Assembly: GCA_036676985.1 (NCBI GenBank)
Contig: JAKFBU010000023.1
Span: 224,001 to 288,000, forward strand
DNA: 64,000 nucleotides
Source: Candidatus Sericytochromatia bacterium
Lineage (GTDB): Bacteria > Cyanobacteriota > Sericytochromatia > S15B-MN24 > UBA4093
Direction: 5' to 3'
Below, one piece after another: positions 24,932 through 37,084 of this stretch; position 1 is the first letter of the stretch, and each line of letters begins with the position of its first letter. Both the position numbers and the translations under genes were made by a program. The notes beneath the pieces are model-generated. The model was not told the DNA's origin. It worked only from the letters and a program-made list of their open reading frames with translations, and did no database searches.

Positions 24932-25585
24932 TCAGGCCTTGAGGTGCATGCGATCGCGCGCCTCGCTCATGAGCTCGGAGGCCCCGAGCATGATGGCGCG
25001 ACCGTCCACCAGGTGATCGAGCAGGAAGTTGAGGGAGAAGCTCTCGAACTCGCCGAGGGCGTCGTCGAGCTGGCGCAGGCCCTGCTCGTAGAGGGCGATC
25101 GCACCGTACCAGGCATCCGGCGCCGAGGCGGCCGCCAGCCCGCGCGTGAGCTCGCCGAGCGTTTCACGGGCGGACGAGACGACCTCCTCGAACGCCTCGG
25201 AGAGCCGCTCGTCGTAGGGATCCCCCGACAGGTCGTCGAGCTGGTCGAAGAGACGTTCCATGAGCAGCTGGATGCGCGCATCGAGGGGGCCGAAGACCTT
25301 TTGATAAAAGAGCTTGGCATCCACCCCGCCGCGCGCGGGTCGGGCCGGACGGGTCGGGAGGCGCTGGGGGCCGCGCTGCGTCGCGTCGTAACGAGCACGC
25401 CGGTCCGCGTTGCCGAGGGTCTCGTACGCCTCGTTGAGGCGGGCCATCTGGCGGACGTTGCCGCCTACCCGGTCGGGGTGAGCCAGCTTCGCCTTGGTGC
25501 GATAGGCAGACCGGATCTCGTCCTCGGTCGCGGTCCGGGTCACACCCAGCAGATCATAGAAGTTGGGGGGTGCTTGCTGCCTCAT
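24932..25585 (-). CDS. J-domain protein (class C DnaJ-like)
   Basis: NFYDLLGV, AHPDR, LNEAYETL, RARYD. Confidence 0.88.
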   Translation of the reverse strand: MRQQAPPNFYDLLGVTRTATEDEIRSAYRTKAKLAHPDRVGGNVRQMARLNEAYETLGNADRRARYDATQRGPQRLPTRPARPARGGVDAKLFYQKVFGPLDARIQLLMERLFDQLDDLSGDPYDERLSEAFEEVVSSARETLGELTRGLAAASAPDAWYGAIALYEQGLRQLDDALGEFESFSLNFLLDHLVDGRAIMLGASELMSEARDRMHLKA

Positions 25586-25659
25586 CGGGCGCGGGCCTCT
25601 CTTTCCACAGCTCCCATTCTATCGGGGAGCCGGTCCGGAGGCCAACCGCCGCCGCTCGG

Positions 25660-25900
25660 ACATCACGTCGCCATCAAGCCACCACATCACGCGCATGACG
25701 TGACGACTCTGACATCACGCCAACCGATCGAACTCAGGACCCCTCACGCATCGGCATCCAAGTCATCGACTACCACGTTACGTCGTTACCGCGCTGTCGT
25801 CATGATCACTCAAGCAACCCATCACCCGACGCACGTTCTCACCTTAGCGACTTTTCGCTCGTAACATCTTATCCGTGACGCGATAGACGGACATGACCCG
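25660..25900. repeat. Non-coding array of ACATCACG-like motifs
   Basis: ACATCACG at 25660, 25684, 25712 plus many CATSAC/CGTGAC/GTTAC variants. Confidence 0.5.
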
Positions 25901-25908
25901 CAACAAGC

Positions 25909-26082
25909 CTAAGCCCCGAGCATCGCCGCCAGAATGAAGCAACAAGCCAACAGCGTGACCTTGAAGCCATAGAGCTCCCGGGGGTCCATGAAGCGGGCCA
26001 GCCAGGTGCGGCGCACGCGCCGCAGGACCCGCAGGCGCGGACGACCGGGAAGGGGACGAGCAGGAAGGGTACGAATCGCCAT
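25909..26082 (-). CDS. 57-aa basic single-TM protein downstream of lexA (candidate SOS effector)
   Basis: GGAGG RBS within the 14-nt gap after the lexA stop; MAIRTLPARPLPGRPRLRVLRRVRRTWLARFMDPRELYGFKVTLLACCFILAAMLGA. Confidence 0.7.
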   Translation of the reverse strand: MAIRTLPARPLPGRPRLRVLRRVRRTWLARFMDPRELYGFKVTLLACCFILAAMLGA

Positions 26083-26096
26083 CGATGGCCTCCGTT

Positions 26097-26696
26097 CTAT
26101 TGCATGCGACGAATGACGGCCACGACCCGACCCTGGATGGTGACCGCTGGGACCCGGATGGGCTCCATGCTGGAATTGGCGGGCTGCAGCCGGATGTGGT
26201 CCGCCTCGCGGTACAGGCGCTTGAGGGTGGCCTCCCCATCCGGCAAGAGGGCCACGACGATCTCGCCGTTGCGGGCGGTGGCCTGGGGACGGACCACGAC
26301 GTAGTCGCCGTCGGCGATGTGGTCCTCGATCATGCTCTCCCCTTTGACCCGCAAGAGAAAGGTGCCGGCCAGCTGCAGGTCCTCGGCGAGTTGCAGGGAT
26401 TCCCTCGACTCGATGGCTTCGATGGGCCGACCCGCGGCGATGCGTCCCATCACGGGGAGCCGGTAGGGGTCGGGCCGCTCGACCTTGTCGGTGAGGCGCA
26501 GGTTGCGGCTCACGCCCGGCTCCCGATCCAGGTAACCCTTGCGCTCGAGGGCACGCAGGTGGTCCTGGATGGTGCCCGGCGCCTTGACGCCCAGGGCGGC
26601 CGCCAGCTCCCGAACGGTCGGGACCTGCCCGTGGCGCTCATGGTGCTCGACGATGCGATCGAGCAGCTCGCGCTGACGGGCCGTCAAGTCGTCCAT
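26097..26696 (-). CDS. lexA: SOS repressor LexA
   Basis: LTARQREL, PTVREL wHTH; IAAGRP cleavage site; GESM Ser and TLKR Lys dyad. Confidence 0.96.
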   Translation of the reverse strand: MDDLTARQRELLDRIVEHHERHGQVPTVRELAAALGVKAPGTIQDHLRALERKGYLDREPGVSRNLRLTDKVERPDPYRLPVMGRIAAGRPIEAIESRESLQLAEDLQLAGTFLLRVKGESMIEDHIADGDYVVVRPQATARNGEIVVALLPDGEATLKRLYREADHIRLQPANSSMEPIRVPAVTIQGRVVAVIRRMQ

Positions 26697-26780
26697 TCAC
26701 CCTCCCCCGCGCCGCATCCGGCATCGATCGGCCTGCCAAATGCCTTCGAAAGCCCGTTTCATGCGGCGACTTGCATGAAC

Positions 26781-26820
26781 CATACACTTGTATGGTAAGG
26801 TAGAACAAACGTTCCGTCAA
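26781..26820 (-). promoter_or_regulatory. lexA promoter with SOS box(es)
   Basis: TTGACG-N17-TACCAT; GAAC-N4-GTTC (26803-26814) in the spacer; second palindrome CATAC-N4-GTATG (26781-26794). Confidence 0.85.
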
Positions 26821-26901
26821 GGGCTTGCCCAGGGAATAGGCAGACACGAATTGTTATGCTATAGTTTTAAGATGTGTTAAGCACTCAGGGAGGCAATTGC
26901 C

Positions 26902-27081
26902 ATGAACGGGCTCGAACAAACCGGACACAAGGTCGGACTGCTCACCCTGCTTACGGTCTGCCACTCGTTGAGCCGTGCGCCCAAGCGGCAGCACGAGGCG
27001 CTCGCCCATTTCACGCGGCGCTCTCAGGGGCTGGGGCTCGGCTTCATGCTGTCCTGGTCGGCCCGTCCGCGCCGGCGCTAA
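26902..27081 (+). CDS. 59-aa hypothetical protein divergent from lexA
   Basis: GGGAGG RBS; extended -10 TGnTATAGT at 26857-26865; MNGLEQTGHKVGLLTLLTVCHSLSRAPKRQHEALAHFTRRSQGLGLGFMLSWSARPRRR. Confidence 0.5.
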   Translation: MNGLEQTGHKVGLLTLLTVCHSLSRAPKRQHEALAHFTRRSQGLGLGFMLSWSARPRRR

Positions 27082-27118
27082 CCCCCCAACTCACGCGAAA
27101 ACCACGCCGGGGTGTCGG

Positions 27119-27154: not shown

Positions 27155-27604
27155 TCAGTGGGACGGGCGATCGCGGGATCTGGAGGACCCCTCCAGGACC
27201 TGAGGAAAGTCCGAGCTCCATAGGGTAGGACGCTGGGTAACGCCCAGTGGGGGAAACCCCGAGGATAGTGCCACAGAAAGATACCGCCCGACGCATTCGT
27301 CGCACCATTGCCGCGCTCCAACGCGTCATGATATGGCCGAACGGCTACCGAACCGAACGCGGCTGTGCAGGTGCCTGGATCCACTAGGTGTCGGGTAAGG
27401 GTGCAAAGGTGGGGTAAGAGCCCACCAGCAGCCGGGTGACCGGCTGGCTAGGTAAACCCCGTCCGGAGCAAGACCAAACAGGGGAAGTTGACGCGACCCG
27501 CCGATTCCCCGGGTTAGGTCGCTCGAGGCGATGGGCAACCATCGTCCCAGATAGATGATCGCCCCCTCCGCGGGGGGACAGAACTCGGCTTACAGGCCCA
27601 CTGA
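27155..27604 (+). ncRNA. rnpB: RNase P RNA, bacterial class A
   Basis: GAGGAAAGTCC, AGTGCCACAGAAA, GGTAAGAG, GGTAAACCCC, GAGCAAGACC, ACAGAACTCGGCTTA; P1 TCAGTGGG/CCCACTGA. Confidence 0.97.
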
Positions 27605-27688
27605 CACGGGGCGAGACCGCGGTCTCGCCCCTTCTTTACTCCAGCCTGTGCGCATGGTCACAGCAGTTACGAGAGGGGATGGCCTAGC

Positions 27689-28615
27689 GTGGTGGAGGCC
27701 AATTATCATCTGCCGGTGCTGCCCGACGAGGTCCTGGCGGCCTTGGCGCCCGAAAAGGGGGGCAAGGTGCTGGACGGCACGCTCGGAGGCGGAGGCCATG
27801 CGGCCCTCCTCTTTCAGGCGGTGGGTCCCGAGGGCTTCCTCTACGGCATCGACCAGGACCCCCGGGCCCTGCAAGAAGCCGAGGCACGACTGGCGGCGAT
27901 TGGCCCCAACTTCGAACTGAGGCGCGGCAACTTCGGAGAGGTCCTCCAGTCGTGGCCGCCCGAGCCCTTGGACGGCATCCTGCTCGACATCGGGGTCTCG
28001 AGCCACCAGCTGGACACCCCGGAGCGCGGATTCTCGTTTTGGCGGGAGGGACCCCTCGACATGCGGATGGATCCGAACGCCCCGACCACCGCGGCGGATC
28101 TGGTCAACCAGCTCGACGAGCGGTCCCTCGCGGACCTGTTGTTCCGCTACGGCGAGGAGCGTCTCTCGCGCCCCGTCGCCCGGGCCATCGTGGCGCGCCG
28201 CCAGCAAAAGCCCTTCGAAACCACCACCGAGCTCTCGGACGTCGTCAGCCGGGTGGTCCCCCGCAGCAAGGACGGCATCCATCCCGCCACGCGCACCTTC
28301 CAGGGCCTGCGCATCGCCGTCAACGACGAGCTGGGCGTCCTGGAGCGGGCCCTGCCCGCGGCCGTCCAGCGCCTCAAGCCGGGCGGCCGGCTCGCGGTGA
28401 TCACCTTCCACTCGCTCGAGGACCGGATCGTCAAGCAGTTCATGCGCGCCGAGGAGAAGGGCTGCGTCTGCCCGCCCCGCATCCCCATGTGCGTCTGCGG
28501 CAAGGCCCCGACCGTGGAGGTCGAGACGTCCAAGCCCATCATCGCCACGGCCGAGGAGACCGACCGGAACCCGCGCGCGCGGTCGGCCAAGCTCCGCGTC
28601 GCCAGGAGGATCTGA
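27689..28615 (+). CDS. rsmH: 16S rRNA m4C1402 methyltransferase
   Basis: HLPVL, DGTLGGGGH, DIGVSS, PLDMRM, FHSLEDR, NPRARSAKLR. Confidence 0.96.
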   Translation: MVEANYHLPVLPDEVLAALAPEKGGKVLDGTLGGGGHAALLFQAVGPEGFLYGIDQDPRALQEAEARLAAIGPNFELRRGNFGEVLQSWPPEPLDGILLDIGVSSHQLDTPERGFSFWREGPLDMRMDPNAPTTAADLVNQLDERSLADLLFRYGEERLSRPVARAIVARRQQKPFETTTELSDVVSRVVPRSKDGIHPATRTFQGLRIAVNDELGVLERALPAAVQRLKPGGRLAVITFHSLEDRIVKQFMRAEEKGCVCPPRIPMCVCGKAPTVEVETSKPIIATAEETDRNPRARSAKLRVARRI

Positions 28616-34569: not shown

Positions 34570-35946
34570 ATGACCGACTGGCAGGACAAGAAAATCGCCA
34601 TCCTCGGCATCGCGCGCTCGGGCCTCGCCTGTGCGGCGGTGCTCAAGGGCCTCGGGGCCGAGGTCATCCTGAGCGACGTGCGCTCGGCGGAGGACCTCGC
34701 GGAGATCCTCAAGACGGCCCCCGAAGGCGTGCAGATCGAGACGGGCGGCCACTCCAGCGCCTGCCTGGACGCCGACGTCATCATCGTGAGCCCGGGCGTG
34801 CCCAAGAACCTCGCCATCCTCCAGGCCGCCGAAGCAGACGGCGTCGAGGTGATCGGCGAGATCGAGCTCGCCTACCGCTTGACGTCGGCCCCCATCGTGG
34901 CCATCACGGGCACCAACGGGAAGACGACCACCACCACGCTGATCGGCGAGATTCTCGCGGCCGCGGGCAAGCATGCCCCGGTCGGCGGCAACATCGGCAT
35001 CCCCTTGGTCTCCTTGGCCCAGGAGCCCTCGGACTACCTGGTGGCCGAGGTCTCGAGCTTCCAGATGGAGACGGTCTCGGACTTCAAGCCCCACGTGGCG
35101 CTCTGGATCAACTTCTCGGACGACCACCTCAACCGCCACGGCTCGCGCGAGGCCTACTGGGAAGCCAAGAAGCGCCTGTTCGCGAAGCAAGGCCCCGAGG
35201 ACTGGGCCATCCTGAACGCCGACGACCCGGCCATCCAGCCCCTCATCGGGGCGCTTACCGCCCGGACGCTGGCCTTCTCGCGGCGCGGGGAGCTCGCAGA
35301 GGGCGTGATCCTGGCCGACGGCCAGATCGTCCACCGCACGCCGGCCGGCGACACGCCCATCGTGAGCGTCGCGGAGATCCCCCTGCGCGGGGCCCACAAC
35401 CTCGAGAACTGCCTCGCGGCCTCGGCGGTGGGCGTCGCCCTCGGCCTGGAGCCTGCGGCGATCGCCCGCGCCATCCGGGAGTTCAAGGCCGTCGAGCACC
35501 GCATCGAGCCGGTCCTGACCCTCGAGGGCGTGCAGTACTTCAACGACTCCAAGGGCACCAACTACGACTCGACCATCAAGGCCATCGAGAGCTTCGAGGA
35601 GCCCCTGGTGCTCATCGCCGGCGGCCGCGACAAGGGCGGCGCCATCGACCCCCTGGTGACGGCCATCAGCGGGCGGGTCGCTCACGTGGTGCTCCTGGGC
35701 GAGGCGGCCCCGTACTTCGAGCGCGTGCTCCGGGCGGGCGGCTACCAGGAGATCACCATGGCCACCGACCTCGCGGGCGCCATTCGCGAGGCCCACGCCC
35801 ACGCGACCCAGGGCGGGGTGGTGCTCTTCAGCCCGGCCTGCACCAGTTTCGACATGTTCAACAACTACGAGGAGCGAGGCCGCGCGTTCAAGGCCCTGGT
35901 CCATGACCTGGCCGCCGAGCGAGCGGGCGATGTCGTCGGAGCGTAG
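34570..35946 (+). CDS. murD: UDP-MurNAc-L-Ala--D-Glu ligase
   Basis: SPG, ITGTNGKTTTT, EVSSFQ, NDSKGTN, SPACTSFD. Confidence 0.96.
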   Translation: MTDWQDKKIAILGIARSGLACAAVLKGLGAEVILSDVRSAEDLAEILKTAPEGVQIETGGHSSACLDADVIIVSPGVPKNLAILQAAEADGVEVIGEIELAYRLTSAPIVAITGTNGKTTTTTLIGEILAAAGKHAPVGGNIGIPLVSLAQEPSDYLVAEVSSFQMETVSDFKPHVALWINFSDDHLNRHGSREAYWEAKKRLFAKQGPEDWAILNADDPAIQPLIGALTARTLAFSRRGELAEGVILADGQIVHRTPAGDTPIVSVAEIPLRGAHNLENCLAASAVGVALGLEPAAIARAIREFKAVEHRIEPVLTLEGVQYFNDSKGTNYDSTIKAIESFEEPLVLIAGGRDKGGAIDPLVTAISGRVAHVVLLGEAAPYFERVLRAGGYQEITMATDLAGAIREAHAHATQGGVVLFSPACTSFDMFNNYEERGRAFKALVHDLAAERAGDVVGA

Positions 35947-37084
35947 CGCCCTCGGCTGGCGCAGCCGGCCCGACCTGTCCCTGCTCATCATCACGATCGC
36001 CCTCATGCTCATCGGCTTCGTGATGATCCTCTCGGCGAGCGCGCCCGCCGCCCAGATCCAGATGCGCGACAGCCTGTTCTTCGTCAAGAAGCAGGTCGCA
36101 TGGGGCCTGCTCGGCCTGGTCGCCATGGGGATCGGCATGACCCTGCCCCTGGACCGGGTCCGCACCTGGGCCAAGCCCGCCATGATCGGGACGGCGGTCA
36201 TGTGCCTCGCCATCCACATCCCGGGCGTCGGCATGACGGTCTACGGCGCCACCCGCTGGCTCAAGCTGGGCCCCTTCTCCGTGCAGCCCTCGGAGCTCGC
36301 GAAGCTGGCGCTCATCCTCTTCGTCGCGGACTTCCTCGCGCGCCACCCCGACGCGGGCTGGCGGCTCAAGGAGCACCGCCAGGTGCTCTTGCCCATCGGG
36401 GGCATGATCGCGCTCATCCTCTTCCAGCCGGACCTGGGCACCACGCTCATGTGCGCGACGGCCTGCTTCGCGCTGTTCCTGGCCAACGGCACCAAGGTCT
36501 GGAAGCTCGGCGTCTGGATGACCACGGGCATCGTGGCCGTCATGGCCATCTCCCTGACCACGCCCTACCAGCGCCTGCGCTGGCTCGCCTTCATGGACCC
36601 GTGGAAGTACCCGCGCGACATCGGCTTCCAGCTCATCCAGTCGCTCTTGGCCATCGGGTCGGGCGGCATCTTCGGCACGGGCTGGGGCCAGGGCAAGCAG
36701 AAGCTCTTCTACCTGCCCATCCAGCACGCGGACTTCATCTTCGCGGTCCTGGCCGAGGAGTTCGGCCTCATGGGGACGCTCGGCCTCGTGCTGCTGTTCC
36801 TGCTCTTCGCCCAGCGCGGCTTCGCCATCGCCAAGCGCTCGCAGAACCCCTTCCACCAGCTCCTGTGCATCGGGCTGACGACCCTCATCGTCGTGCAGGC
36901 CTTCGTCAACATCGGGGTGGTCTCGGCGGCCCTGCCCACCACGGGCATCCCGCTGCCGTTCCTGTCCGCCGGCGGCACGAGCCTCATGATCACGCTCTTC
37001 GCCGTGGGCATCATCCTCAACGTGAGCCGCCAGACCCAGGTCCAGCTGCGGCTCCTGAAGCTGGGAGACAAGGGTCAATGGTAG
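35930..37084 (+). CDS. ftsW: SEDS-family peptidoglycan polymerase FtsW
   Basis: GATRW, QPSELAK, QPDLGT, DFIFAVLAEE, GIPLPFLSAGGTS. Confidence 0.93.
   Translation: MSSERSALGWRSRPDLSLLIITIALMLIGFVMILSASAPAAQIQMRDSLFFVKKQVAWGLLGLVAMGIGMTLPLDRVRTWAKPAMIGTAVMCLAIHIPGVGMTVYGATRWLKLGPFSVQPSELAKLALILFVADFLARHPDAGWRLKEHRQVLLPIGGMIALILFQPDLGTTLMCATACFALFLANGTKVWKLGVWMTTGIVAVMAISLTTPYQRLRWLAFMDPWKYPRDIGFQLIQSLLAIGSGGIFGTGWGQGKQKLFYLPIQHADFIFAVLAEEFGLMGTLGLVLLFLLFAQRGFAIAKRSQNPFHQLLCIGLTTLIVVQAFVNIGVVSAALPTTGIPLPFLSAGGTSLMITLFAVGIILNVSRQTQVQLRLLKLGDKGQW

Follow-up and report, generated by a model that had tools for sequence, protein, structure and literature searches.

The 64,000-nucleotide stretch of Candidatus Sericytochromatia DNA analysed here (the window) carries on its minus strand a small gene for a protein of 57 aa (25909..26082; ATG start, MAIRT...AAMLGA), recognised as an open reading frame (ORF) and through its relatives. 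It lies directly behind lexA-B, which encodes a second LexA paralog of 199 aa and ends in a TAG stop (26097..26696, minus strand; TIGR00498, PF01726, PF00717). The 14 nt between this stop and the ATG of the small gene read AAC-GGAGG-CCATCG and include a directly read Shine-Dalgarno sequence, GGAGG (26089..26093, minus strand), 6 nt 5' of the start codon. On re-reading, the position, ATG, GGAGG-N6-ATG and 14-nt distance from the lexA stop given in an earlier note on this DNA all proved exact. A scan detected no terminator-like site between lexA-B and the small gene or after the small gene, and the 136 nt 3' of the small-gene stop folded like their shuffles (z 0.01). The promoter-like TTGACG-17-TACCAT of the operon was located by a scan at 26820..26792 (minus strand), with its -35 and -10 kept in the four lexA-B promoters. 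Beyond it lie rnpB, the gene for RNase P RNA (27155..27608, plus strand; RF00010, 289.6 bits), and rsmH (27689..28615, plus strand; Pfam), the first gene of the dcw cluster, which continues by Pfam assignment with an FtsL-like gene, ftsI, murE, murF, mraY, murD, ftsW (35903..37084, plus strand; PF01098, E 8e-108), murC, murB, ftsQ, DUF881 and ftsZ. Since rsmH begins at 27689, 1.6 kb from the start of the small ORF, the distance to the dcw cluster had also been given correctly.

Other features were observed in the neighbouring DNA. J-domain and CxxCxxCC genes follow the small gene in 4 of the 11 genomes that carry it (J-domain: G000, which is this genome; G001, the sister species of the same genus; G004 and G007). 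The J-domain gene of the window (24932-25585) has a promoter-like TTGGCC-18-TAGAAT (25645..25616, minus strand), and just upstream of this (G/C)ACATCACG occurs three times, at spacings of 24 and 28 nt (25659-25719, plus strand). With one mismatch allowed this motif is over-represented in the window (38 against 17.4 expected), and the copies may be regulator binding sites. Divergent from lexA-B, between its promoter and rnpB, is a conserved small ORF with a strong GGAGG (26902-27081, plus strand; 59 aa, MNGLEQTGHKVGLLTLL...RPRRR), whose relatives in G001, G004, G005 and G007 share V-G-L-L-T-L-L..V..S-L..A-P and a C-terminal R-R-R. A 201-nt contig of a soil RNA run is identical to 26897-27097 and spans this ORF; the segment could instead be part of the rnpB precursor transcript. 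An ORF antisense to the start of the small gene (25988..26116, plus strand) was read as a mirror of its Arg-rich region.

Conservation and layout of the small protein

ORFs of similar size are common in this DNA (65 of at least 30 aa in 7 kb, 67% G+C), so that the frame alone, like the box in its promoter (see below), is within chance, and it is conservation among relatives that lifts the finding above it. A search of 41 related genomes gave clear matches in nine others (E 5e-24 to 6e-6), and a profile of 10 copies located the gene in 11 of 47 genomes from the class, the remaining 36 giving no match. This survey used protein and profile searches of genomes; a locus search of genome contigs gave three loci. 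In public protein collections the relatives form 39 clusters at 90% identity and, when length was left unrestricted, 19 representatives at 50% identity. All are 50-96 aa long, hence no fused or longer form was seen, and all belong to Sericytochromatia-labelled records, some metagenome bins bearing cyanobacterial genus names. Frame, length, motif and start context are kept across six genera, with GGAGG or GAGG likewise 5' of the start in the relatives. In all eight pairs compared, dN/dS is 0.15-0.44 (Nei-Gojobori; GC3 0.75-0.93), and in a variant strain (run X7) third codon positions hold five of the seven listed differences within the ORF. The comparison of relatives, synteny and dN/dS that the earlier note had proposed thus found the ORF conserved. 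A chance ORF without product in G+C-rich DNA is scarcely credible against this conservation and these dN/dS values, which rule it out as far as sequence comparison can. By the same comparison, 25909..26082 is a real conserved gene for a predicted small membrane protein.

The exact 57-aa sequence is recorded as a predicted, nameless protein (NCBI, Logan) and its close relatives are filed as ‘hypothetical protein’. The small protein is therefore uncharacterised but not uncalled, and the term ‘unannotated’ does not hold in that second sense. No family was matched in Pfam (E up to 1) or NCBIfam, none of ten members of the small family had a match in PHROGs, a PDB profile search returned chance matches alone (E 0.76 or worse), and the best ESM Atlas look-alike scored 0.84, below the meaningful level. 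These empty searches agree with the earlier statement that the protein has no LysM and matches no family its reader recognised. A 64-68 aa ORF is also present beside rnpB in all four genomes of genus g7 (L091:1179-1382, minus strand, in G012; L095-L097). It has two LexA-A-type sites (11.2-21.3); by eye, it begins with M-A-I-R, includes P-R-L-x-V-L-x-G-G and turns hydrophobic near the C-terminus. Its assignment to the family as a homologue was unsupported (hhalign probability 2.6%).

In an alignment of 53 sequences, a variable Pro/Arg-rich start is followed by a P-R-L-R-V-L stretch and then by the conserved block R-R-x-W-x-x-R-F-W-D-P-x-E-L-F-x-L-K, in which W27, R30 and K41 are invariant and D33 nearly so. 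A hydrophobic stretch extends to the final one to three residues, and the membrane helix is less conserved than the W..RFWDP.ELF..K motif. AlphaFold2 left residues 1-26 disordered, placed a short helix at 27-31 and predicted with confidence a second helix that closes the protein (38-56), with a mean pLDDT of 66.5 and values of 87-89 in the last two blocks (41-57). The predicted helix and the 11 Arg within residues 1-35 bear out the Arg-rich N-terminus and single C-terminal transmembrane segment described earlier. Together with the positive-inside rule, this Arg content suggests that the N-terminus is cytoplasmic and the protein tail-anchored, with an Arg-rich part of 35-40 residues in the cytoplasm and a single C-terminal helix in the membrane. 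That the conserved part would be the cytoplasmic motif suggests a specific partner, and the three invariant residues of this short candidate are available for mutation.

LexA paralogs, operators and control of the small gene

LexA-B scored 209.8 bits against TIGR00498 (cut-off 110.95), also matched PF01726 and PF00717, and has intact self-cleavage residues (Ala88-Gly89, Ser121 and Lys159). It is 47-56% identical to LexA-A, the LexA of most relatives; the C-terminal domain is close to that of LexA-A, whereas the DNA-recognition helix is divergent. The lexA-A gene of this genome, encoding the main LexA (214 aa, 56% identical to LexA-B), lies outside the window on another contig (C47:29129-29749, minus strand) with GAACCTTTGTTT before its start. 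The lexA-A promoters of relatives carry CGAAC-N4-GTTC-type boxes (loci L005-L026; 13 with a perfect core and 9 with one mismatch). The lexA-B gene is present in four genomes (G000, G001, G002 and G010).

Further LexA- and RecA-like sequences were noted in this genome. A third, short frame resembling the LexA N-terminus (C27:272979-273191, plus strand) is 46% identical to residues 2-72, and the gene before it, judging from its end, may encode a DNA polymerase IV. About 4 kb upstream of this frame is the genome's top LexA-A-type site (26.9 bits, C27:268710), adjoining an HhH-GPD glycosylase gene. Two recA matches lie at contig ends (C10:6-791 and C17:18920-19504), together with two short C-terminal fragments; the double matches may stem from assembly breaks or the 5% contamination estimate rather than from two genes.

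The putative LexA-B operator, ACCATAC-AAGT-GTATGGT (26779..26796, minus strand), overlaps the -10 and the point where transcription probably begins. All four lexA-B promoters have in common the -35 and, over the -10, the palindrome TACCATAC-N4-GTATGG, while the flanks diverge. Among the matches listed, a perfect CCATAC-N4-GTATGG occurs once each in G000, G001 and G002, at the lexA-B promoter, and the lexA-B promoter of G010 also holds a perfect copy. Counts with at most two mismatches (41, 27, 33 and 31) resemble those of a reversed-pattern control (39, 27, 53 and 33) and thus give no sign of further LexA-B sites. We infer that LexA-B binds CCATAC-N4-GTATGG, an operator not found in the literature searched, and that it arose by duplication as a repressor that can still be cleaved and has an operator of its own. 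The distant LexA proteins of family f6 (L028-L030, 35-36% identity) have promoters with GTATAC-N4-GTATAC-like palindromes, which resemble the LexA-B operator more than they do the GAAC box.

The spacer of the window promoter also contains, as the earlier note had seen, a perfect GAAC-N4-GTTC box. This LexA-A-type box, GAACGTTTGTTC (26803..26814, minus strand), is the only perfect match to GAACNNNNGTTC in the window. One perfect GAAC-N4-GTTC box compares with 0.78 expected in the window, at least one occurring in 55 of 100 shuffles, and the whole 67% G+C genome holds 28. Among the four lexA-B promoters, a LexA-A site is present in that of the window only (17.8 bits, against 0.4, 3.2 and -2.1), and the sister species keeps only the right half of the box. 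The earlier note had the small gene driven by the lexA promoter, marked by this box. The drive itself agrees with the gene order, the small gene following lexA-B at 13-40 nt in all four lexA-B genomes, but the GAAC box is that of the other LexA type and is absent from the three other lexA-B promoters.

A weight matrix built from 17 lexA-A promoter sites alone found 38 sites of at least 14 bits in this genome, among which the window box ranks 17th. Six of the 16 best sites outside the window adjoin repair or recombination genes: the HhH-GPD glycosylase gene (rank 1), lexA-A (2), recQ and an RNase D-like exonuclease gene (5), a topoisomerase gene (8), recA, 129 nt before the match (9), and ruvB (15). 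The other ten adjoin unrelated or unknown genes, or none. As the best sites adjoin recA, ruvB, recQ and lexA-A, the GAAC-N4-GTTC type appears to be the SOS box of the clade. In all seven genomes without lexA-B (G004, G005, G007, G008, G016, G018 and G022, from four genera), the small gene stands alone with its own TTGAC-type promoter, and the same matrix finds a site within 150 nt upstream of each copy. These sites score 27.3, 21.6, 16.1, 14.8, 14.4, 14.4 and 8.5, values that are not independent probabilities because the genomes are kin. In 3000 random 150-nt segments of G000, which are mostly coding DNA, the 99th percentile was 7.9 and the 99.9th was 11.9. Several of the stand-alone sites fall within the TTGAC-N17-(-10) spacer, and the promoter of G005, TTGACT-GAACGTTTGTTC-GAGGC-TATCAT, is nearly that of the window.

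Overall, the small protein is very probably a LexA-controlled small membrane protein, and the LexA control proposed earlier is borne out at the level of sequence by the lexA-B operon in four of four genomes and the LexA-A-type sites at seven of seven solo copies. An alternative explanation is that the gene is real but lies outside DNA-damage control, the boxes serving another regulator or LexA-B no longer responding to RecA. The window GAAC box taken alone is within chance, and LexA-B, with a single operator per genome among the matches listed, would not be a global SOS regulator. We nevertheless consider this alternative very unlikely, as a matrix derived from lexA-A promoters still finds recA, ruvB, recQ and every solo copy, and LexA-B retains the Ala-Gly, Ser and Lys residues as well as a C-terminal domain close to that of LexA-A. 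For expression, four sequencing runs were compared; of the 21 runs listed, one is on record as RNA. The RNA run X20 has no contig over the small gene or most of lexA-B, its sole long identical piece being 26897-27097, and a 396-nt contig of run X14 (labelled RNA, probably DNA) covers 25947-26342. The two runs show neither transcription of the small gene nor its absence.

rnpB adjoins the small gene in all 11 genomes. The retrieved flank includes rsmH at 8 of the 11 loci, and the window has it as well. Nearness to the dcw cluster may be passive synteny carried by rnpB. Genus g2 contains both states, the lexA-B operon and the solo gene. The simplest history would be that of an SOS-controlled small gene beside rnpB and dcw, with lexA-B later coming between promoter and gene in some lineages. 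The locus would then illustrate cleanly how regulation is rewired in nature, one gene in one place appearing to be under the global LexA in some genomes, under a private LexA paralog in others, and apparently under both in G000.

A candidate inhibitor of cell division

The small gene would be made only when LexA repression is lifted. In G000, where lexA-B and the small gene would form a two-gene operon in that order, the LexA-B operator over the -10 and the LexA-A box in the spacer would place both repressors on one promoter. As both LexA proteins retain their self-cleavage residues, DNA damage sensed by RecA should remove both and switch the operon on, after which LexA-B from the same transcript would re-repress it. 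In the reading that we favour, the induced protein would then delay division through contact with the late divisome inside the membrane, FtsW being the first candidate, a role equal to that of SidA, YneA or SosA in bacteria lacking SulA. Induction by DNA damage and action on division are both inferred here from sequence. To the reading of the small protein as a division inhibitor acting on the late divisome, which the earlier note had put forward, we give slightly less than an even chance.

SulA (PF03846) had no match for the small protein or across the genome, which is 100% marker-complete, in a search that found the E. coli control. According to PMC13689564, SulA-less bacteria use small (29-165 aa), lineage-restricted membrane inhibitors encoded beside the SOS repressor. 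The small protein shares these traits: it is 50-96 aa long across its family, has a predicted helix (38-56) and occurs in one lineage. Its gene also neighbours a repressor gene in 4 of 11 genomes, starting here 14 nt after lexA-B. The same source states that SidA binds FtsW and says the same of YneA and SosA (PMC13689564). A predicted complex of the small protein with FtsW scored 0.58 (runs 0.58, 0.63 and 0.58; alignments of 82 and 53 rows), against 0.00 for the best of three controls that may not be membrane helices. The runs agreed in at least 92% of contacts and the partner pLDDT was at least 70. In the calibration, 58 of 80 solved complexes attained the mark, as against 2 of 110 mismatched pairs; among scores of 0.60 or below, passes came from 7 of the 80 solved complexes and from both of those mismatches. 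On this calibration a score such as that for FtsW misleads in more cases than not, except for a pair already probable on other grounds, and the prediction lends weak support to an FtsW contact. Counted against the inhibitor reading are the presence of the family in just 11 of 47 genomes of the class, its absence beside rnpB in G003, and the loss of the window GAAC box in the sister species.

The main rival to a division inhibitor is an SOS membrane toxin or dormancy peptide of the TisB/DinQ kind, whose helix would lower the proton-motive force and halt growth generally. A small hydrophobic peptide under LexA control that, unlike YneA and SosA, exposes nothing outside the cell would suit such a role, and TisB is a known LexA-controlled membrane toxin (PMC11575346). 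However, the best conserved part of the small protein is the cytoplasmic motif, whose W27, R30 and K41 never vary among the 53 sequences, and the helix is less so. Nor was a repressing antisense RNA noticed in the general inspection of the locus. The strong ribosome-binding site, the shared operon with a repressor gene, the fixed place beside dcw and, weakly, the FtsW fold (0.58, controls 0.00) also speak against a toxin, which we consider rather improbable.

The conserved part being cytoplasmic and Arg-rich would equally suit an SOS membrane protein with another role, which tethers or modulates LexA-B, RecA or the J-domain protein, or takes part in envelope repair. A J-domain gene after the small gene in 4 of 11 genomes points in the same direction, and dual roles exist, since Acinetobacter DdrR is described as both a co-repressor and a division inhibitor (PMC13689564). 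A role on LexA-B is nonetheless unlikely because the small gene occurs in seven genomes without lexA-B, which is thus not needed. The J-domain gene has its own promoter-like site and, in G003, from a genus of the same family, abuts rnpB and persists with the small gene missing, which makes a J-domain role unlikely as well. On balance, we regard another role of this type as unlikely.

In the fullest form of the division-inhibitor reading, the locus would be a checkpoint cassette with a private LexA, in which a duplicated LexA with a new operator was inserted between an SOS promoter and its gene, and a tail-anchored inhibitor blocks FtsW via its conserved Arg/Trp motif, acting from the side of the cytoplasm and the membrane. 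This combination is possible, though we hold it to be doubtful. If it is true, the genomes show stages of a hand-over from global to private LexA, with the box only in G005, both elements in G000 and the private operator only in G001. The family would be a concrete, testable candidate for such a checkpoint.

Comparison with known systems

Sericytochromatia are a non-photosynthetic sister group of cyanobacteria, and full-text literature searches brought up none that, judged by title or abstract start, deals with the SOS response or the control of division in this group. To our knowledge, the inhibitors of SulA-less bacteria are unrelated between lineages, each new one holds the late divisome differently, and none is known for Sericytochromatia. 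In YneA and SosA the helix is N-terminal and the active part lies outside the cell, a layout unlike that of the small protein, which would have almost nothing outside the cell; we counted this against the inhibitor reading. In contrast to YneA, the small protein also has no LysM and its helix is C-terminal. ChiZ has an Arg-rich, disordered cytoplasmic N-terminus like that of the small protein but carries a LysM. As described in PMC13689564, YneA (Bacillus), SosA (Staphylococcus), DivS (Corynebacterium) and ChiZ (Mycobacterium) are likewise lineage-restricted, lexA-adjacent and SOS-induced. Their genes are divergent from lexA, whereas the small gene follows lexA-B on the same strand or occurs by itself. 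SidA of Caulobacter crescentus (29 aa) is described there as likewise small and LexA-controlled, essentially one helix without an extracellular domain (PMC13689564). The small protein differs in the Arg-rich part of 35-40 residues, predicted to be cytoplasmic, with a conserved motif before the helix, and in its place in an operon with a LexA paralog or beside rnpB; it was set apart from SidA by description.

The lexA-sulA operon of Pseudomonas places a LexA-controlled division inhibitor directly behind lexA. The small gene occupies the same place, but SulA, known also from E. coli, is soluble, measures about 160 aa and binds FtsZ, and PF03846 was not matched here. TisB and DinQ of E. coli are likewise small, hydrophobic, LexA-controlled peptides. 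They are shorter, almost wholly hydrophobic and controlled by small antisense RNAs, whereas the small protein has a conserved motif on its predicted cytoplasmic side and a canonical ribosome-binding site.

A second LexA that recognises a separate operator occurs as LexA2 in Pseudomonas putida and Xanthomonas. LexA2 of Leptospira interrogans (PMC3789691) is likewise a second LexA whose DNA-binding domain has diverged; it has an operator of its own and controls very few genes, its own among them. In these LexA2 systems the cargo is a mutagenesis cassette or prophage genes, whereas here it would be a small membrane protein. The kind of system is thus already known; judged on sequence, what appears to be new here is the protein family, its tail-anchored layout and its capture by a private LexA with an operator that we have not seen described.
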